The notes beneath the pieces were generated by a model. That model did not search any database, was not told the DNA's origin, and saw only the letters and a program-made list of their open reading frames with translations. Below, piece after piece: positions 1 through 9,400 of a DNA stretch of 64,000 nucleotides. The stretch is from Candidatus Multivorans sp. (GTDB taxonomy: Bacteria; Acidobacteriota; Thermoanaerobaculia; Multivoradales; Multivoraceae): contig OZ245033.1 in NCBI GenBank assembly GCA_965224025.1, positions 4,160,001 through 4,224,000 of the forward strand, written 5' to 3'. The translations under genes were made by a program, and so were the position numbers. Each line of letters opens with the position of its first letter. Positions within the stretch are counted from its first letter, which is position 1.

Positions 1-2
1 AG

Positions 3-1478
3 GCGGCCTGGCGGCCCGAGTTCTTCGAACAGGATCTGTTCATCGACCGCCTGATCGCGGAGAGCTTCGAACTGCGAATCGACGGCGTTCACTACCCGAT
101 CAACGAGCGCTTCCTGCACCGCGCCCTGACCGCCACGCCGACCGACCTGCAGACGATCAGCTTCCGCCAGGGGATCCTGCGCGAACTGGACGAGGACGAG
201 GAAGTCCTCGCCTCGGCCGAACGCCTCTACCGCGAGCTGTTCGGTCTGCTCTCGCTTCACCGCATGCCCCGCTACCACAGCGTCCTCGATACGGCGTCCC
301 ACAACCTGGACATCCTCAGGCAGAGCCGTCTCGTCATCGACCTGATGCACGATCGCTTCGAGACGGTCCGCTCGGGACTCCGACGACTGTACGAAGGGGC
401 AGTCGCGATCCGCGCGACCGAGGAGTACGCGACCCTTGCCGCCCTTCTCGACTACGAGAGCAAGCTCGCCGAACTGAACCTCGACATCACTCTCGGCGGC
501 GACGGGCGCATCCGCGGCCTCGAGGTGCGCTCCCTCGAGGAGTGCCGTGACAATCCGTTCTGGACCCGGCCGATCAAGCGGCTCTGGAGCCGCGCTCGGC
601 TCGGCCTCGGCGGCTACTCGATGGGCAACCGGGAACTCCTGAACCGGGTCGTCGAGCGGGTCTACGTCTCTCTGTCGCCCGCCCTGATACCCCTGATCCA
701 GATGCTCGGCCAACTGGAGCTCTACCTCGCCTCCCGCGCTCTCCGTGACCGCGCCGCCGAGCGCGGTCTCTCCATGTGCATTCCCGAGTTCCGGCCGGAA
801 CATGATGGCGACTCCGCAATCGAGTGTGAACACCTGTTCAACCCGCTGCTGCTGACCCAGGAGCTGGCGCCCGTGCCGTGTACGGTGAGAACGGTCGGTA
901 GCGTGCCGATCACCGTGGTCACCGGTCCGAACTCGGGAGGCAAGACGCGGCTGATCCAGGCCATCGCGCTGGCTCAACTGCTCGGTCAGTCCGGCCTCTA
1001 CGCGCCCTGCAGCCGCGCCCGGATGCGCGTCCGGCAGGGGCTGTTCGTGTCCCTGATCGAGCGCGAAAGCGCGGATCAGGTCGAGGGCCGCCTGGGGCGC
1101 GAACTCGTGCGCATCCGCACCCTCTTCGAAGAGATGGAGCATGGCTCGATGGTGGTCCTGGACGAGCTGTGCTCGGGCACCAACCCTTCGGAGGGAATCG
1201 AGGTCTTCACTCTCGTGCTCCAGCTCCTCCGGCGTGTCCAGCCCGTGGCCTACGTAACCACCCACTTCCTCGACCACGCCCGCGCCCTCCAGCAGAACCA
1301 CATGGAACTGGGCCTCGAGTTCCTCCAGGTACAGCTCGACGACGAGCGCCGGAGCACCTATCAGTTCAAGGGCGGCGTCGCCCGCACGTCCCTGGCGGCG
1401 CTCACCGCGGAGCGGCTCGGCGTCACCTTCGAGAACCTATCGGCAGCTGTCGACGAGCGCCGGGCGAAGGCCGGCTAG
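3..1478 (+). CDS. MutS-related ATPase (MutS domain V protein), 5'-truncated by window edge
   Basis: Frame is open from base 3 (AAWRPEFFEQDLF...) into the 264..1478 ORF. Walker A TGPNSGGKT, Walker B VVLDELCSGT and the TTH motif are typical of MutS domain V. Confidence 0.8.
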   Translation, partial: AAWRPEFFEQDLFIDRLIAESFELRIDGVHYPINERFLHRALTATPTDLQTISFRQGILRELDEDEEVLASAERLYRELFGLLSLHRMPRYHSVLDTASHNLDILRQSRLVIDLMHDRFETVRSGLRRLYEGAVAIRATEEYATLAALLDYESKLAELNLDITLGGDGRIRGLEVRSLEECRDNPFWTRPIKRLWSRARLGLGGYSMGNRELLNRVVERVYVSLSPALIPLIQMLGQLELYLASRALRDRAAERGLSMCIPEFRPEHDGDSAIECEHLFNPLLLTQELAPVPCTVRTVGSVPITVVTGPNSGGKTRLIQAIALAQLLGQSGLYAPCSRARMRVRQGLFVSLIERESADQVEGRLGRELVRIRTLFEEMEHGSMVVLDELCSGTNPSEGIEVFTLVLQLLRRVQPVAYVTTHFLDHARALQQNHMELGLEFLQVQLDDERRSTYQFKGGVARTSLAALTAERLGVTFENLSAAVDERRAKAG

Positions 1479-1529
1479 GAGTGTCCGCAGCGTTGTCGCT
1501 GCGCTGTCGCGCAGGGAACAGGCAGCGAG

Positions 1530-1730
1530 TAGCCAACGTTACAGCGGCGTCGTGGGTTCATAGAGTTGGCCGCGCTGGGCAGCGAGGCCGCGCAGGCACT
1601 GGTGTGTTGGCGCCCGACTAGGAGTTTGGCCCGGACCGTGATCGGCGCTCTGACGCTGGCGGCGCGGCTTGTGTCGCGACCCCGTATGCAAGATTGAGCT
1701 TTTCGCCGCGGTCTCTGCCCAGCGCGACGA
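1530..1730 (+). ncRNA. Candidate IS110 bridge/guide RNA in the left non-coding end
   Basis: A perfect 12-bp stem (1571-1582 with 1715-1726, extendable) encloses two hairpin arms with internal loops. The position matches IS110 bridge RNAs. Strand is inferred from G-U wobble pairs. Confidence 0.55.
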
Positions 1731-1759
1731 TTGGATTCCACATCTACGGGAGGCAGGGG

Positions 1760-3079
1760 ATGGCAAAGCGGAAGGCGGAGCGTCTGGAAGTCGTTCACCC
1801 GGATTGCGCCGGTGTGGACGTAGGCAAGCGCAAGCACTACGTGGCGGTGGCCCCGTCGCGTTTCGAGCGGCCGGTGCGCAATTTCTCGTCGTTCACGGAG
1901 GACCTCGAGGCGATGGCCTCGTGGCTTCAGGAGTGCGGCGTGCGTGAGGTGGCGCTGGAGTCGACGGGGGTGTACTGGATTCCGGTGTTCGAGGTGCTGG
2001 ACCGGGCGGGGTTCGAGGTGCATCTGGTGAATCCTCGGGCGACCAAGCAGGTGAGTGGCCGCAAGAGTGACGTTCTGGACTGCCAGTGGATCCGGCAGTT
2101 GATGAGCTACGGGCTCCTGCGCGGTGCGTTTCGCGCGCCGGACGAGTTGTGTCCGCTGCGTTCGTACACGCGGCAGCGCGCCCAGTTGGTCCGCGACCGC
2201 AGCCGCGCGGTGCAGCACATCCAGAAGGCTCTGGTGCAGATGAACGTGCAGTTGGACAACGTGCTGAGCGACATCATGGGCAAGACCGGCCAGTTGATCG
2301 TGCGCGCGATCGTCGCCGGCGAGCGCGACGGCGCGGCGCTGGCCCGTCACCGGGACGGTCGCTGCAAGGCTGGTCCGGCTGTGATCGCGGCGAGTTTGCA
2401 AGGCAACTGGCGAGACGAGCACCTGTTCGCTCTGGGCCAGGCGCTGGCCCGCTACGACATGCTGCAAGGCCAGATCGAGATGTGCGAGAAGCGCATCGAC
2501 GCCGAGCTCGACGGCCTGGCCCAAGACGGCGTCGAGGACGCGCCGCCGCCCGGTTCGAAGGCGCGCGAGCGCGCCCTGCGGAAGCGGCTGCATCGCATGC
2601 TCGGCGTGGACCTGGTCGCCATTCCGACGGTCGGCGTCGAAACCGCGCTGACCTTCGCCGCTGAGATCGGCCCGGACCTGTCCCGGTTTCCCTCGCAGGG
2701 CAACTTCTGCTCGTGGCTGTGTCTGGCTCCACCGACCAACATCAGCGGCGACAAACGGCTGAACGGCCCTCCCGTGAAGCAGACCAACCGGGTCGGCCAG
2801 ACGCTGCGCCAAGCCGCCACCACAGCCCGCAACAGCAAGACCGCCATCGGAGCCTCTCACCGCCGGCGTCTCCAGCACATGGAGAAGGCGAAGGCCATCA
2901 AGGCCACCGCTCATCAACTCGGCCGACTGATCTACGCCATGCTGACCCACGGCGAAGAGTACGTCGAGCGCGACCTCGCCGAAATGGAGGCCGTCCGACG
3001 CGAACGACAAATCAGAAACCTGCAGCGTCAGGCCCGCCGCCTGAATCTGGCTCTCGTGCCGACCGAACATGCCGCCTGA
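1760..3079 (+). CDS. IS110-family DEDD recombinase/transposase
   Basis: N-terminal RuvC-like motifs GVDVGK, ESTG and RKSDVLD. C-terminal Tnp domain IPTVG...EIGPDLSRF...ISGD. ATG at 1760 follows GGGAGG. Confidence 0.95.
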   Translation: MAKRKAERLEVVHPDCAGVDVGKRKHYVAVAPSRFERPVRNFSSFTEDLEAMASWLQECGVREVALESTGVYWIPVFEVLDRAGFEVHLVNPRATKQVSGRKSDVLDCQWIRQLMSYGLLRGAFRAPDELCPLRSYTRQRAQLVRDRSRAVQHIQKALVQMNVQLDNVLSDIMGKTGQLIVRAIVAGERDGAALARHRDGRCKAGPAVIAASLQGNWRDEHLFALGQALARYDMLQGQIEMCEKRIDAELDGLAQDGVEDAPPPGSKARERALRKRLHRMLGVDLVAIPTVGVETALTFAAEIGPDLSRFPSQGNFCSWLCLAPPTNISGDKRLNGPPVKQTNRVGQTLRQAATTARNSKTAIGASHRRRLQHMEKAKAIKATAHQLGRLIYAMLTHGEEYVERDLAEMEAVRRERQIRNLQRQARRLNLALVPTEHAA

Positions 3080-3400
3080 ATCGCGCAACCTGCGCTGCCA
3101 ACAAGGAACCCCTACCCGTTTGTTCCATGCAAGACTGCGCTGCGTCCGCGCAGCGCTGACTTGCATGGAACTGGTCGCCGACTGGGTGCGCGGGTCTTCT
3201 GACCCGCTGCCGCCGGAGGCGGCCAGAGATACGTGCCGGCCGTCAGGCCGGCTCCGCTTTGGCGGCCAGTTCCATACAAGCTTGCGCGACAGAACGATCT
3301 GACCTGGGAACCCGTGTGGCGCGCCCGCATCCGGACGCCGCGTCGTTCCCTGCGCGACAGCGCAGCGGACCGCCGCTGTGGATACTCCCAGGCGCCGGCT

Positions 3401-4092
3401 TCAGTATGGGACGCCGGTCGCCCGGCAGACGAAGCGCATCAGGGGGGACGCGGCCGCGCAGAGGCCGGTGAACTCGTCGAGGAAGCCGCGGCTTAGCAGG
3501 CGGGTCTGGTTCAGGTTGGCCACGGCCATGAACGACTTGCGCTTGATGTCGTCGATCCGCGGGTGACGGGCGTCGAATCCCCGCGGCGCCCGCTTCAGAC
3601 TCTCGCCGCCGAGTTCGAGCAAGTCGCCGAGCCCCGGGTCGACGGTCACCTCCCGCCAGCCCTCGCCATCGGCGACGATCTGCTGCCGGATCGCCCGCAG
3701 GGCCTCCGGATGCGGTCGCCACATTCCCCCGCCCATGAACACGCTGCCGGGCTCGATGTGGAGATAGAAGCCCGGCGCGTGGGCGTCCTTGTGCTGCTTG
3801 TGGCGGAAGTGAATGCCCACCTGGGTCTTGTAGGGGCTCTTGTCGCGCGAGAACCGGACGTCGCGGTGGATCCGGAACAGCGACCCGCCGACCTTCTTCG
3901 GCACTGCGTCGAAGTGCTTCGACACCTCGTCGAGCCGGGTCCCGAAGTCGCTGATGAACTGGAGCGCGGGCTCCCGCACCACGTCCTCGTAGCGCTCGCC
4001 GTTGGCCTTGAACCAGTCGCGGTCGTGTTCTCCACGAGGTCGCGCAGAAAGGCGAATGTCTCGCGCGAGAACGGGTTCTTCCATTGATCCAT
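3401..4092 (-). pseudogene. DUF2461 (TIGR02453-like) protein with a 1-bp deletion near 4026
   Basis: N-terminus MDQWKNPFSRETFAFLRDLVEN is in one frame and DRDWFKAN...RIHRDVRFSRDKSPYK in another. Adding one A restores ENNDRDWF. Confidence 0.75.
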
Positions 4093-4178
4093 CCGTTGCT
4101 CCGTGTGGTTCGGGATCAGGGGCAACTTGCCGGCGCGAAGTGTATTCTCGAAGGCGCTCAAACAGGGAGGGATCCGTA

Positions 4179-4928
4179 TTGGACATCTTCGTCGCCGAAC
4201 TGGTCGGCACCGCGCTCTTGATCATTCTCGGCGACGGCGTGGTCGCCAACGTCGTTCTGGCCCGCACCAAGGGGAACGACAGCGGCTGGATCGTCATCGC
4301 CACCGGCTGGGGACTGGCCGTCGCGCTCGCCGTCTACTGCGTCGGCCGGATCAGCGGCGCCCACATCAACCCGGCGGTCAGTGTCGGCATGTGGGCGATC
4401 GGCGAACTCGACGCCGCCCTGCTGCCGACCTACATCGGCGCCCAGATGCTCGGCGCGTTCCTTGGCGCGGTCGTCGTCTGGCTCACGTACCGTCCTCACT
4501 GGAGCGCCACCACTGACCAGGCGGCCAAGCTGGGCGTGTTCTGCACGGCGCCGGAAATCCCCGGACGCCGGGGCGCCAACTTCATCACCGAGGTGGTCGG
4601 CACCGCGGTGCTGGTGTTCGGCGTGCTCGCGATCGCCGCCAACGCCTCGGAGCTCTCAGGCGGCGGGATCGACCTGTCGGCCGTGTTCGCCACCGGCATC
4701 AACCCGCTGCTGGTCGGTTTCCTGGTCTGGGGCATCGGCCTGAGCCTGGGCGGTCCCACCGGCTACGCGATCAACCCGGCCCGCGACCTCGGTCCGCGCA
4801 TCGCCCACGCGGTACTGCCGATCCCCGGCAAGGGCGGCTCCGACTGGAGCTACGCGTGGGTACCGATCCTGGGTCCGTTGACCGGGGGCGTCCTCGGCGC
4901 CCTGGCCTTCCAGGGTCTCGGCTGGTAG
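4179..4928 (+). CDS. glpF: Glycerol uptake facilitator (MIP/aquaglyceroporin)
   Basis: SGAHINPAV and AINPARD motifs. TTG start after GGAGG. Lies directly upstream of glpK. Confidence 0.93.
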   Translation: MDIFVAELVGTALLIILGDGVVANVVLARTKGNDSGWIVIATGWGLAVALAVYCVGRISGAHINPAVSVGMWAIGELDAALLPTYIGAQMLGAFLGAVVVWLTYRPHWSATTDQAAKLGVFCTAPEIPGRRGANFITEVVGTAVLVFGVLAIAANASELSGGGIDLSAVFATGINPLLVGFLVWGIGLSLGGPTGYAINPARDLGPRIAHAVLPIPGKGGSDWSYAWVPILGPLTGGVLGALAFQGLGW

Positions 4929-4940
4929 ATCGCGGCGCCT

Positions 4941-6428
4941 ATGACCTACGTCCTCGCCCTGGACCAGGGCACCACGTCCAGCCGCTCCATCCTGTTCGAG
5001 CGCCGGGGAACCGCCGCTTCCTCCGCGCAGCAGGAGTTTCCGCAGCTCTACCCCTCACCCGGCCACGTCGAGCACGATCCCGAAGCGATCTGGACCACCC
5101 AACTCGACACGGCGCGCGCCGCCCTACGGAACGCCGGCGCGGACGTCTCGGACATCGAGGCCATCGGCATCGCCAACCAGCGCGAGACGGTCGTGCTGTG
5201 GGAGCGCGACAGCGGTAAGCCGGTCGACAACGCGATCGTCTGGCAGAGCCGCATCACCGCGCCGCTGTGCGAACAGTTGAAGGAGCAGGGCCACGAGGAC
5301 CTGTTCCGCGGCAAGACCGGCCTGGTGCTCGACCCCTACTTCTCCGGCACCAAGATCTCGCACCTGCTGGACAAGCACGACCTGCACGCGCGGGCGGCGC
5401 GCGGCGAGATCCTGGCTGGAACGATCGACAGCTTCCTGCTCTGGCGGCTGACTGGCGGCGAGGTCCACGCCACCGACGCGAGCAACGCCTCGCGCACCCT
5501 GCTCTTCGACATCCACAAACTGGACTGGGACGACGAGCTGCTCGGCATCCTGCGGGTGCCACGCGCCATGCTGCCCGAGGTCCGGGATTCGAGCGGCGAC
5601 TTCGGGCACACGGAGGAGAGTCTCTTCGGGCGGCGGATCCCGGTCGCCGGCATCGCCGGAGACCAGCAGGCGGCGACCTTCGGGCAGGCCTGCTTCGAAC
5701 CCGGAACGTGCAAGAACACCTACGGCACCGGCTGCTTCATCCTGATGAACACAGGCGACCGGGCGGTGGCCTCCGACAACGGCCTGCTCTCCACCGTCGG
5801 CTGGGTGCTCGACGGGCGGCCCACCTACTGCCTGGAGGGTTCGGTCTTCGTCGGCGGCGCGGCGGTGCAGTGGCTGCGCGACGGCCTGGGTCTGATCGAG
5901 AGGTCCGAACAGATCGAGGAGCTCGCCGCAAGCGAGGAGGACAGCGGCGGAGTCTACCTGGTACCCGCCTTCGTCGGCCTCGGCGCGCCGTACTGGGACC
6001 CCTACGCGCGCGGTCTGCTGATCGGCCTGGAGCGCTCGACCACCGCCGGCCACGTGGCGCGAGCCACCGTCGAATCGATGGCGTATCAGAGCCTCGACGT
6101 CGTGCGCGCCATGGAAGCCGACGCCGGTTCCGGCATGAGCGGCCTGCGGGTCGACGGCGGCGCGGCGGTCAACAACGACCTGATGCAGTTCCAGGCCGAC
6201 CTGCTGGGCACGCGGGTCCAGCGGCCGGTCGTCGCCGAGACCACGGCGCTCGGCGCCGCCTACCTGGCCGGTCTCGCGGTCGGCTTCTGGGCCGACCAGG
6301 CCGACGTGACCCGCAACTGGGCCCTCGACCGCGAGTTCGAACCGGAATCCTCATCGACCAAGCAGGAGCGCCTCGCCTCCGGCTGGCGACGCGCCGTCGA
6401 GAGATCGCGCGGCTGGGCGGAGATGTAG
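4941..6428 (+). CDS. glpK: Glycerol kinase
   Basis: [28 protein letters not shown] and VDGGA motifs. Confidence 0.97.
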
Positions 6429-6463
6429 GAACGCAGCGCTTCCTCGGTTCCGGTCGGCCGCCT

Positions 6464-9400
6464 CTATTCAGGCGTCGCGGCCTCCTGTACAGCAATCAGT
6501 TTCTCGCCTGCCGGCACCACGAGATCCACCGTTGACGAACCCACGACGCGGCCGCCAGGCCGCCGCACGATCACATGGTACGGAACTTCGAACAGTCCGT
6601 CGATCAAGAAGTCGCCGTCTTGAGCGCTCCGGGCAACCCCTGTCTGGCCCACGCGTTCCGCCACCTCGAGAGTCGCGTGAGCAGGAGCGGCCACCACTTC
6701 GAATCCCGCGGCCGGTCCACCGTTGTCCGCCCGCACGAGGCGGCCTGCAAGCACGGCGCTGCGCGCCCGGAAGTCGGCCCAGCTTTCGCCCTCCACGTTC
6801 ACGGTGCGGCGCTCTCCAACCGCCGCGATCTCGACGCGGCCACTGCGCAGACCGTCGATGACGTAGATGCCGCGATGGTCCGTTCGCACAGCCCAGGCAT
6901 CGCCGGCGCGCTCGTCGATCACGAACACCGGCGCGCCAGCCAGCGGACTGCCATCGACCGTGACCAGACCGGCCAGCCGACCGCTCGTCTCGGCGTCGTC
7001 GAACGTGATTTCGATCTCCGTCGCTCCGCGCGGTAGAACGTCTACGGTGCGGCGCTGCATGCGGTCCGAGGACCGCACCCCGGCCACAAGCACAACCGTC
7101 CCGATCGGAGGGTCGTGCTGCACGAAAACCGGAGCGCCTCCCAGTTGGTTCGGCGACCTCTTTAGTCGGCCGCCTCCACCCGGCGATAGGGGAGTGGGCT
7201 CGATCCCGACCTCGACCGTAGCGGCCTCCTCGGCCGTCAGACCCGCGACGCGCGCTCTGATTTCCCGTGCCGCGCCAAGCCTGAGCACGACATGGACCGG
7301 CTCGTTCGTGCCTACTTCGATTTCTCGCGACGTGGCAGCATAGCCGTCCACTTCGGCGCTCGCCCGGTAGAGCCCCGGAATCACATCGAGGCGAAACGAA
7401 CCGTCCGGCGCGCTTCGCTCTTCCCTGTCTGGCGCCAGCGGACGGCTGATCCGCACGGTGGCGCCGGCAACCGGCAAGCCAGCCGTGTCTTCGACCCACC
7501 CCTCAACCCGGACCGGCGTCAAGTCGAGAACCAACTCGGTGATACCCGGCTGAACATCGCGGTACCACATGATCGGTTGACCAGACTCCCCTCCAGGCGG
7601 CCAGCAGAACACCATGCTCTCGCCCATAGGGAGGCCAGACAGTTCAAACCGACCCGCGCCATCGGTCGTCGCGCGTTCCATCGTATTCATCTGGACTACT
7701 GCTCCCACGACCGGTGCGCCGCCCGAATTCACGACGCCCCGCACCGTGGCGTCTCCACGGCGAAGGACCAGCACGAGGCCGTCGCCGGTCGAGTACAACC
7801 CGTCGTCATCCGTGAGTTCACGTCGAAACGGCGCATAACCGAACGCCTCCACCTTCAGGACACCATTGAGCGAAGCCAGACCGCGAAGGAGGAACCTGCC
7901 CTCCGACCCGGTTCGTTCGAGCGCCAACTGCCGACGTTCCGCTTGGTCGAGTAGTTGAACACGAGTACCCTCAATGCCCTTGCCGGACGCTTCGTCCACG
8001 AGACGGCCGCGCAACTCGGCCGCCGGCTCCATGGCGATCTCGACCCTGCGGGGGTCAGCCGCGCGATCGACGTACACGCGAAGCCGTTCGGCCCTCACAT
8101 AGCCGGCGTGCTGCACGACGAGGTCCAGCAGATCGCCGTGCCGAAGCCCTCCGATTCGAAAACCGCCCTCCGCATCGGACCGAATCTCCCCTGTAGACCA
8201 CGCCACGGAATCGAGGCTCAGCGCACCCGTCACGTCCGGACTACGCCCGAACCCCACCACCGCGTCGGCAAAGGGAAGGCCGGCGCTATCCGTGACGATT
8301 CCCTCCACGGCCAGTTCCGGCTCCAATGCCACCTGCCCGAGGTCGTGCCAACCCGTCCACTCCGCAAGCAGCGCAGCAGATCCCGCGTTTGAGCGTAGGG
8401 GAACAAAGCGGGTCGCATAGCCCGGCGCGCCTACCGCGACCGAGCTGGCGGCGGGAGAGACATCGGGAAATCGGAACACTCCGTCTTCATCCGCCTGTGT
8501 CACATCGTGAAGACTGGGGTTCGACGCCAGAAAAAGATCGACTGGGCCGAGGGAAGGCGGCACGAAGAGACGCTGCTGACCGACCAGGGCAGCCAACCCT
8601 GCGACTCCCTCTCCCGAGGGCGAGACGATCCGGCCGAAAATCGACGCCGCACGCTCTAGGCGTACAACGATCGGCCCCGGGGCAAAGGCTCGCGAAGTTG
8701 CCGGTTCCAGGGCGACTCTCGCGGCCCGGTAGCCCTCCGCACGCACGACCAGACGCGGTGGGCTCTGCGCCTCGCTCGCTTCAATCCGAAACCCGCCGTT
8801 GGGAGCGGTCAAGGCGACGGGCGCCAGACGCCCTGTGTAGGCACCGTACAGCGCGACCTCAGCACCCTGCACGGGATCGCCCGTTTCGTCTGCCAGGACG
8901 ACACCTTCGATCGATCGAAACGGCGTCAGCTCGAGGTCCTCCTGATCGAGCAACCAATCGACGGTCTGCTTCTCGAAGCCTGGAGCGAGGATCGTCGTTT
9001 TCACTGCGCCCGCTGGCGGCCGGACGGTCCATGTCGTTCGGTGCCTAGTTCCAGGGGCCATGACTGTGGGGCCGAGCGTCTGCCTTGCCAGCAGGTCACC
9101 GGCTCTCGACCGGTGGATCGCAACAATCGTCGTAGCCAGCGCCTCCCCCGCATCGGCCGAGGCAAGGACTGTCACCGATCGCTCCGGCACGGCGAGTCTT
9201 CGCGTTCCCGCGTCCTCGACGCGAATCCGCCACTCGCCACCGGAAGGACCGAGAACACGGTACGCGCCGCGGGGCACAGCAACCTTGCCGGCTTCGTCCG
9301 CGACGCCGACCGGCCAACCGGCCGTGTCAACAAGAACAGCCGCCTGCAACGCCTCGCCAAGGGCATCGCCATCGCCCTTCGCGCCGTCAATGACCAGTCG

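Follow-up and report, generated by a model that had tools for sequence, protein, structure and literature searches.

An IS110-family insertion sequence of the ISPpu9 kind in Candidatus Multivorans sp. that is very probably guided by its own bridge RNA

Thousands of bridge RNAs have been predicted in the IS110 family of insertion sequences (ISs), whose subfamilies are described as having bridge RNAs of diverse structure (Durrant et al., PMC11208160). The closest described systems, for which we draw on excerpts of the published reports, are IS621 of Escherichia coli, ISPpu9 of Pseudomonas putida KT2440 and ISPpu10 of P. putida. In IS621, the 5' strand of each RNA loop pairs with the bottom DNA strand over 8-9 nucleotides (nt) and the 3' strand pairs with the top strand over 4-7 nt, opposite a CT core (PMC11208160, PMC11208158), and each loop runs in the order stem, 5' guide, stem-loop, 3' guide and two handshake bases (PMC11208158). 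ISPpu9 has AG at both ends, a 43-bp left box with a palindrome that is also present in the right target, and a 16-bp right box; it inserts into repetitive extragenic palindromes (REPs), uses a native promoter and not one formed at the junction, and has a derivative resembling a MITE (a miniature transposable element with inverted repeats) that is bounded by the same boxes (PMC12288879). In ISPpu10, a stem-loop of the target beside the half read by the 5' guide aids recombination (preprint 10.64898/2026.03.19.712850). Here we analyzed a 64,000-nt stretch of the genome of Candidatus Multivorans sp. (contig OZ245033.1), referred to as the window, and focused on its segment 1482-3133, which is in all probability one copy of an active IS110-family IS of the ISPpu9 kind, guided by a bridge RNA that it encodes itself. 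The element is intact, has recently been active and multiplied, and is an ordinary member of a known RNA-guided family. Its ends, copy number and intactness, the conservation of its RNA structure and three correspondences between guide and DNA, together with their covariation, were read directly from the source genome (G000), from related genomes (G016, G019, G025, G026, G027, G034 and G064) and from loci of other genera.

The source genome holds 14 copies of the element, each exactly 1652 bp long (TGTCC... to ...GCAAG), which show 0-2 base differences (identity of at least 99.87%) and all keep the 439-amino-acid recombinase frame open. Besides these, there are one gene-only copy of 85% identity and two left-end fragments. 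In all 14 copies, identity ends sharply at 1475/1476 and at 3133, and the DNA to the left of CTAGGAG is unique at each of them. An unfilled site is present in G026 and G016, where the same unique left flank as that of the copy at 4987824 leads up to CTAGGAG and then directly to CTTGCGCC, a sequence that resembles the one found 3' of the right end in other copies; the repeat on the right of this site has diverged, and in the source genome both flanks now adjoin different copies. Relatives of the recombinase with 44-86% identity were taken from 59 loci of other genera. At 23 of these loci, the left-end match begins at base 1 or 2 of a query begun at 1476, and the right ends of the relatives terminate at GTTCCATGCAAG or a one-base variant of it, beyond which each copy is different. 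In addition, contigs of one public sequencing run break at 1475 and 3133. Because the copies, the unfilled site, the homology in other genera, the contig breaks and the guide matches described below all agree, we place the ends of the element at 1482 and 3133. The two ends are not inverted repeats of each other and AG stands at both junctions, at 1480-1481 and as the terminal dinucleotide of the element itself at 3132-3133, in keeping with the IS110 family, whose members insert site-specifically, lack long terminal inverted repeats and share a short core at both junctions instead of duplicating the target; AG is probably the crossover dinucleotide that both junctions share. Within the left box, two small hairpins (1489-1492 with 1497-1500 and 1501-1504 with 1509-1512) are kept in other genera, with compensatory changes at 3/4 and 2/4 pairs, respectively, and GTTCC of the right box is the inverted partner of GGAAC at 1515-1519.

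An earlier note on this DNA had proposed narrower limits, 1517-3103, with AACA as a duplicated core and the element sitting in the loop of a host REP hairpin that excision would restore. AACA does stand at 1517-1520 and 3100-3103 (and also at 3066), the first followed by GGCAGCG and the second preceded by CGCTGCC, and recombinase-free repeats in a related genome (...GCGCAGGGAACAG-TA-GTTCCATGCAAG) resemble the hairpin that would be left empty. The inverted repeat is real, but its 7 bp are unremarkable: repeats of at least this length arose in 718 of 2000 base shuffles when the first 119 nt of the element were compared with the 54 nt after the stop codon. Moreover, all 14 copies stay identical for 41-42 nt further to the left and 30 nt further to the right, whereas other members of the repeat family differ by 5-20%. 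In other genera and orders, these outer stretches occur together with the recombinase gene, including both arms of the supposed host hairpin (GCAGGGAAC...GTTCCATGC), which is the element's own. The RNA guides match the outer ends and not AACA, and for the empty site or junction expected under the narrower limits (...GCAGGGAACA-AGGAACCCC...) no joined empty site exists in the genome, as no BLAST hit to the computationally joined flanks extended across their joint. We put the chance that the narrower limits are correct at next to nil. The alignment of other genomic copies, which had been suggested as a way to verify them, fixed the ends 35 bases (left) and 30 bases (right) further out, with AG 1480-1481/3132-3133 as the junction, and with the corrected ends the palindromic circle junction that had been predicted is not expected. 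The earlier observation is partly confirmed and its interpretation partly supported, in that the kind of element was right and the particulars were wrong.

The recombinase, which had been recognized as an intact member of the IS110 family, matches the Pfam models DEDD_Tnp_IS110 (PF01548, 1.1e-25) and Transposase_20 (PF02371, 2.9e-11). Its sole solved relative is the IS621 transposase (E value of 1.1e-8), and the D of GVDVGK, the E of ALESTG, the D..D of KSDVLDC and the S of NISGD align opposite the D, E, D..D and S residues of that protein, whose roles are described in PMC11208158. Domains and alignment together give the layout that defines the family, with an N-terminal DEDD/RuvC-like domain and a C-terminal Tnp domain bearing the catalytic serine. 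Homologous proteins carry only the names "IS110 family transposase" or "transposase," and the nearest named relative that was fetched, on a Pseudomonas sp. contig, has 57% identity and the same layout.

The left noncoding end encodes a predicted RNA of conserved, closed two-arm shape, judging from the RNAalifold consensus of an alignment of 17 distinct related left ends and from compensatory changes. This agrees with the earlier note, which had described two arms held by one closing stem. The long-range stem is present and has compensatory changes at 4/13 pairs, but its upper part as then drawn (~1584-1592 with 1707-1714) is replaced in the consensus by the stems that close the individual arms. 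The first (target) arm is closed by 1584-1589/1628-1632 and contains an internal loop and a hairpin of 1600-1606 with 1611-1616; the second (donor) arm, closed by 1633-1640 with 1707-1714 and showing compensatory changes there, contains hairpins and a long single strand. Over the whole consensus, 16/56 predicted pairs are changed on both sides and still pair, a number reached by 0/500 shuffles, and control structures slid by 1-3 columns give 2-3 such pairs. In a second, wider alignment of 15 sequences, which adds relatives at 46-58% protein identity, 19/34 predicted pairs are compensatory, now including the closing stem of the first arm. A number of G-U pairs are kept in every sequence or almost every one, and since these would be C-A mismatches on the other strand, we assign the RNA to the plus strand. 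It ends 30 nt upstream of the start codon of the recombinase, and the predicted structure is what is expected of a bridge RNA, namely, a conserved structured noncoding RNA upstream of the recombinase gene. The closed multibranch shape, which the earlier note suggested may differ from characterized bridge RNAs, is real; given the diversity already stated for IS110 subfamilies in PMC11208160, that shape is not in itself new. As for expression signals, GTTACA/TAGAGT is the sole σ70-like match of at least 8/12 in 1482-1760, a TATAAA-like box lies at the same alignment columns in relatives, and no σ70-like match spans the computed joint between right end and left end. A terminator scan gave one terminator-like site only, on the minus strand within the gene, as chance predicts.

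Three segments of the predicted RNA track the left flank, the right flank and the right end of the element, and all three covary with the DNA across relatives, which is the relation between guide and target that the earlier note had named as a check (Table 1). The left-flank guide is identical to the flank in 14/14 genome copies and, among 37 loci at which both are readable, identical in 34 and mismatched at one base in 3. Ten left-flank variants were found (CTAGGAG, CCAGGAG, CTAGCAG, ATGCAAG, ATGAAAG, ATGCGAG, ATGGAAG, GAGGGAG, ATAGGAG and ATTCTAG), and in a further distant relative (L106) the guide CTAAGAG stands against the flank CTAGGAG. By analogy with IS621, UU at 1625-1626, directly after this guide, is a possible handshake position. 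On the other strand of the same loop, 1590-1596 is complementary to CCTGCGC, and the C that follows could also pair with the core G; this right-flank guide is the most variable block of the 17-sequence alignment. The right flank itself is within one mismatch of CCTGCGC in 10/14 copies and has 2 mismatches in one. Over 18 guide/flank rows, which come from different but mutually related elements and were chosen where guide and flank are both readable, 70/126 Watson-Crick pairs form, compared with a mean of 52.5 after shuffling (4/20000 shuffles reach the observed value); counting wobble pairs, the numbers are 89 and 70.3, and 0/20000 shuffles reach the observed value. The two strands of the target loop, 1618-1624 and 1590-1597, match the two halves of the target with the core included. 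The donor guide equals the right end in 35/36 readable loci, the exception being one base in a copy of G026, and occurs in 8 variants, each of which matches its own right end.

Table 1. Features of the element and its junctions (positions are those of the window)
Feature	Position	Strand	Description
Mobile element	1482..3133, 1652 bp	+	14 equal-length copies; homology limits in other genera; contig breaks
Left target flank CTAGGAG	1475..1481	+	Precedes 14/14 copies; last two bases, AG, are the probable crossover dinucleotide
Conserved left terminal box	1482..1519	+	Two small hairpins; ends in GGGAAC; comparable to the ISPpu9 A box
Candidate internal promoter GTTACA-17-TAGAGT	1538..1566	+	Sequence match of 8/12
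Predicted bridge RNA core	1568..1729	+	Closing stem 1568-1582/1715-1729; target arm 1584-1632; donor arm 1633-1714
Right-flank guide GCGCAGG(C)	1590..1597	+	5' side of target loop; complementary to right flank CCTGCGC
Left-flank guide CUAGGAG	1618..1624	+	3' side of target loop; equals left flank plus core
Donor guide AUGCAAG	1686..1692	+	3' side of donor arm; equals last 7 bases of the element
Recombinase gene, 439 amino acids	1760..3079	+	GGAGG upstream at 1749-1753; frame open in 14/14 copies
Right terminal box GTTCCATGCAAG	3122..3133	+	Ends in the AG of the element; conserved in relatives, variants follow the donor guide
Right target flank ACTGCGC	3134..3140	+	Opens the repeat cluster 3134 to ~3390

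A structured left end might also be explained mainly as a 5' untranslated leader for the control of recombinase translation, with the matches to flank and end as by-products. Excerpts of the report on ISPpu9 (PMC12288879) describe a leader structure with an inhibitory effect on translation, which an antisense RNA counteracts, and the structure here stands close upstream of the start codon, at the 30 nt given above. A leader role, however, predicts no 7-nt segments that keep matching the left flank through 10 variants and the right end through 8, and as the main function of the structure we consider it most unlikely. The two roles are compatible and do not exclude each other.

The notion that a repeat family of this genome is what the element targets was borne out, although the repeat turned out to be the tip of a different small element and not the hairpin formed by the ends of the IS itself. 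On contig C1 of the source genome, CTAG is ~6.7-fold underrepresented (2277 occurrences versus 15153 expected from base composition). CTAGGAG occurs 136 times, counting both strands; 14 of these are the left junctions of the copies, another 14 are their guide-coding DNA, and at 19 unoccupied sites the motif is followed by a 7-mer within one mismatch of CCTGCGC. An insertion polymorphism between two related genomes reveals the nature of the repeat: G064 reads ...CTAGcgg... (C1, ~3263020), and at the same locus G034 has a ~50-nt element between two CTAGs (C1, ~3181020-3181090; L150 and L151). The inverted ends of this small element are CAGCGTGCGC... and ...GCGCACGCTC, and it is also found at many places in the source genome. 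It has the appearance of a MITE belonging to a CTAG-duplicating transposon family. From this polymorphism we conclude that the target of the IS110 element consists of the duplicated CTAG plus the first bases of the inverted repeat of the small element, and the guide variants CTAGGAG and CTAGCAG follow two variants of its repeat tip.

The left-flank guide is encoded by DNA identical in sequence to the left half of the target, which makes this DNA itself a half-target. At several loci (L084, ~2505-2640; L126, ~960-1060; and a relic at G000:C1 ~4134210-4134334, L017) a right-end box directly abuts the left-end sequence that comes after the left-flank guide (...CATGCAAG and then T(T/A)TGGCCCGG...). 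It appears that guide-coding DNA was used there as a half-matching insertion site, which destroys the RNA of that copy. At another locus (L097, 1041-1129 and 2922-3010), ATGAAAG is the sequence of the left-flank guide, of the donor guide and of the right end alike, and a second left end of the same element follows; the right end of its own copies appears to be the target of this lineage, with tandem arrays as the outcome.

In the mechanism that we propose, the recombinase, with its DEDD nuclease-like domain and a Tnp domain that bears a serine, would join both ends of the element at AG, producing a circle joint in which the right end, ...CCATGCAAG, passes directly into TGTCCGCAG..., and this joint would then recombine with the AG of the target CTAGGAG-CCTGCGC. 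The sites would be chosen by an RNA of ~160 nt that is transcribed from the left end on the same strand as the gene. Its first arm would pair through the 5' strand with the right half of the target and would carry the left half plus AG on the 3' strand, and the 3' strand of its second arm would carry the right end of the element plus AG. For this scheme we infer transcription, circle formation, the chemistry and the handshake positions. Viewed on the opposite strand, the core would be CT and the guides would follow the order known from IS621: the target reads GCGCAGG-CT-CCTAG, the 5' guide (GCGCAGGC) is of the same sense, and the 3' guide CUAGG-AG is complementary to CT-CCTAG and is followed by UU. 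An IS621 order on the opposite strand means that the cassette of RNA and gene would be inverted relative to the recombination site in comparison with IS621, and the simplest reading is that RNA and protein would meet the DNA as they do in IS621, with only the cassette turned around.

The element resembles IS621 in its two protein domains with aligned catalytic residues, in targeting a repeat and in having the RNA upstream on the gene strand; as in the excerpted descriptions of IS621, each loop is closed by a stem and would have a longer 5' guide, which is readable here in the target loop, and a 3' guide ending in AG plus two bases. Differences lie in the weak protein similarity (E value of 1.1e-8), in the core, which on the gene strand is AG and not CT, and in the guides of the same sense, which stand on the 3' sides of the loops, so that on this strand the order is not that of IS621. 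Furthermore, the arms lie within a common stem here, whereas those of IS621 stand in a row after a 5' stem-loop, the 3' target guide has 7 nt compared with 4 in IS621, and no junction promoter is recognizable by sequence. If the inversion holds, the RNA-gene cassette of this lineage would lie the other way round with respect to the recombination core than in IS621, and guide-finding tools that assume the IS621 order would misplace the ends, as happened in the earlier note. No guide map for ISPpu9 or the AG-core branch was found in the excerpts of the literature, and the guide maps for ISPpu10 and other ISfinder elements in the extended data and supplements of PMC11208160 may have a bearing on whether the inverted arrangement is on record. 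For this AG-core (ISPpu9-like) branch, the element provides a clean natural example whose ends, target and three guides are readable from one genome and its relatives.

Several observations weigh against an element guided by its own bridge RNA. The two consensus folds disagree on how the donor arm is arranged inside, no Rfam family matches positions 1-8000 of the window at E values up to 1, and single-sequence folds are no more stable than those of shuffled sequences (z scores of 0.34 for 1483-1760 and -1.43 for 1560-1740), which is why we relied on covariation instead. With regard to expression, the promoter match is weak (8/12) and a stricter scan found none, and 0/24 listed public runs are recorded as RNA. 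The circle joint of 3133 with 1482 is absent from the 8 joints listed from four public runs, which consist of contigs only, in which rare forms cannot show; neither this result nor the list of runs speaks to expression or circles. Many of the loci are copies of one element in one genome, and the independent evidence is therefore the number of variants and not the number of loci. Moreover, the right flank is poor in 3/14 copies (3-5 mismatches), and the second core position in the 5' guide is A and not U. Finally, a fourth guide, for the left-end side of the donor, was not found, as RNA 6-mers that complement the core plus left end share no column among the relatives. The two leading candidates, GGCGCU (1644-1649) and GACGCU (1652-1657), fit AG+TGTC only via wobble and show no covariation in relatives, and a 4-nt variable block at 1648-1651, considered as a guide or as a looped-out bulge, fitted only this element.

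With respect to ISPpu9, as described in excerpts of PMC12288879, the likeness extends to the AG crossover, a long left box with a palindrome, a short right box, a repeat as target, a left-box palindrome resembling one in the right target, a small derivative with the same boxes and the lack of a promoter at the circle joint. The palindromes themselves differ (GCCC-N4-GGGC in ISPpu9 versus GCAGCG-N4-CGCTGC here), the derivatives here are without the small RNA gene and only ~56-110 nt long, and insertion is into the tip of a CTAG-duplicating inverted-repeat element and not into a Pseudomonas REP. The element fits the ISPpu9-like subgroup as described (AG crossover, a left box of ~40 bp with a palindrome and a right box of ~16 bp), and its membership rests on anatomy. 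ISPpu10, according to excerpts of the preprint cited above, shares bridge RNA-guided insertion into a repeat, and small palindromes are carried here by the right target and the left box on the side corresponding to the ISPpu10 stem-loop; ISPpu10 differs in its CT core, its IS621 pairing logic and its junction promoter.

Repeats of ~56-110 nt share the ends and the target of the element. The right box GTTCCATGCAAG has 37 exact occurrences in the genome, compared with 0.28 expected; 14 lie in the IS copies, and most of the 23 others terminate short units. The commonest miniature family, of ~59 nt, accounts for 23 of 26 matches to a 20-nt probe (two mismatches allowed). Its unit consists of a hairpin and a GGAAAC box like the left box of the element, with the right box directly after. 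The left flank of these units is CTAGGAG in 9 (including CTAGGAGGAG once), CCAGGAG in 5 and the right end of another unit in 2, the remaining ones being other sequences that mostly end in GAG or TAG, and the right flank is often nnTGCGCC.... At one locus, only the small inverted-repeat element is present in G034, and G026 adds a 59-nt unit exactly between (CTAG)GAG and CGTGCGCC, from which we conclude that the miniature units are discrete insertions with an IS-like target and IS-like ends. A second miniature family, in a related genome, is made up of 41 nt that are 95% identical to the left box, two bases and the right box, arranged in tandem.

We tentatively propose, with a confidence that falls a little short of an even balance, that these REP-like repeats are cargo-less derivatives of the IS110 lineage, spread in trans to CTAGGAG-CCTGCGC sites by the recombinase and the bridge RNA. 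Their movement may follow a half-match or single-strand route recently proposed for IS621, which we consider because a double-stranded circle of 59 bp is implausible. The nearest precedents are MITEPpu9, which forms minicircles when the transposase is supplied (excerpts of PMC12288879), and tandem noncoding repeat units beside IS110 genes, which are described as keeping mostly a left-donor match (excerpts of preprint 10.64898/2026.08.14.744561). In comparison with both, the units found here are dispersed genome-wide at the target of the element, much shorter and free of cargo, and we infer their mobilization; no description of cargo-less miniatures of this size was found in the excerpts of the IS110/ISPpu9 literature. 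The first bases of the units differ from those of the IS. The miniature units are ~90% alike, compared with 99.9% for the IS copies. Conceivably, the history ran in reverse and a repeat that predates the IS lineage was the source of its boxes. If the units are indeed derivatives, an RNA-guided recombinase would maintain an entire family of intergenic repeats. Judging from the miniature units, some "REP" families may be by-products of RNA-guided recombinases, which bears on the origin of intergenic repeats.

The same abundance of recombinase-free units with the ends of the IS, which they outnumber (23 non-IS right-end motifs and ~23 units of one miniature family), would also fit a composite history, in which an IS110 element landed in a REP-like unit and the whole was then copied by the machinery of that unit and not by its own recombinase. 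The RNA beside the recombinase gene, however, has segments equal to the outer right end and to the outer left flank that covary with them, as predicted of the bridge RNA of the element itself. No REP-associated transposase is known here, where no search aimed at one was made, and in ISPpu9, whose anatomy is the same, circles at the outer AG form only with an intact transposase of its own (excerpts of PMC12288879). We give very little credence to the composite history and favor movement of the element by its own recombinase and RNA.

In the window, the element sits between two convergent genes that encode a MutS domain V protein and a DUF2461 protein. Five related genomes have 0-30 nt at the orthologous locus in place of everything from ~1472 to 3388, a comparison that shows a cluster of insertions and no exact empty site. 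Positions 3134-3390, which separate the IS from the DUF2461 gene, hold a cluster of nested repeat units, one of which, on the minus strand, has a left box like that of the element.

The flanks of one copy (L002, G000:C1:110017-114693) are far apart or on different contigs in G016, G019, G025, G026 and G027, and in G026 the left flank known from the copy at 4987824 borders on the right flank known from the copy at 111554. Chromosomal rearrangements seem to have taken place at the identical copies, with the 14 copies marking breakpoints in the source genome.

A second IS110 relative, 85-86% related (85% DNA identity in the gene), is split in the source genome, with only the left end at G000:C1 909043-909275 (L016) and the gene plus right end at 2129243-2130584 (L015), 1.2 Mb apart. 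Its left-flank guide, ATGCAAG, equals the right-end box of its sisters. The two break points share ATTTGAAT and abut inverted ends (GGATTATA... and ...TATAATCC), which suggests that another insertion sequence landed in this second element and that its halves were separated later.

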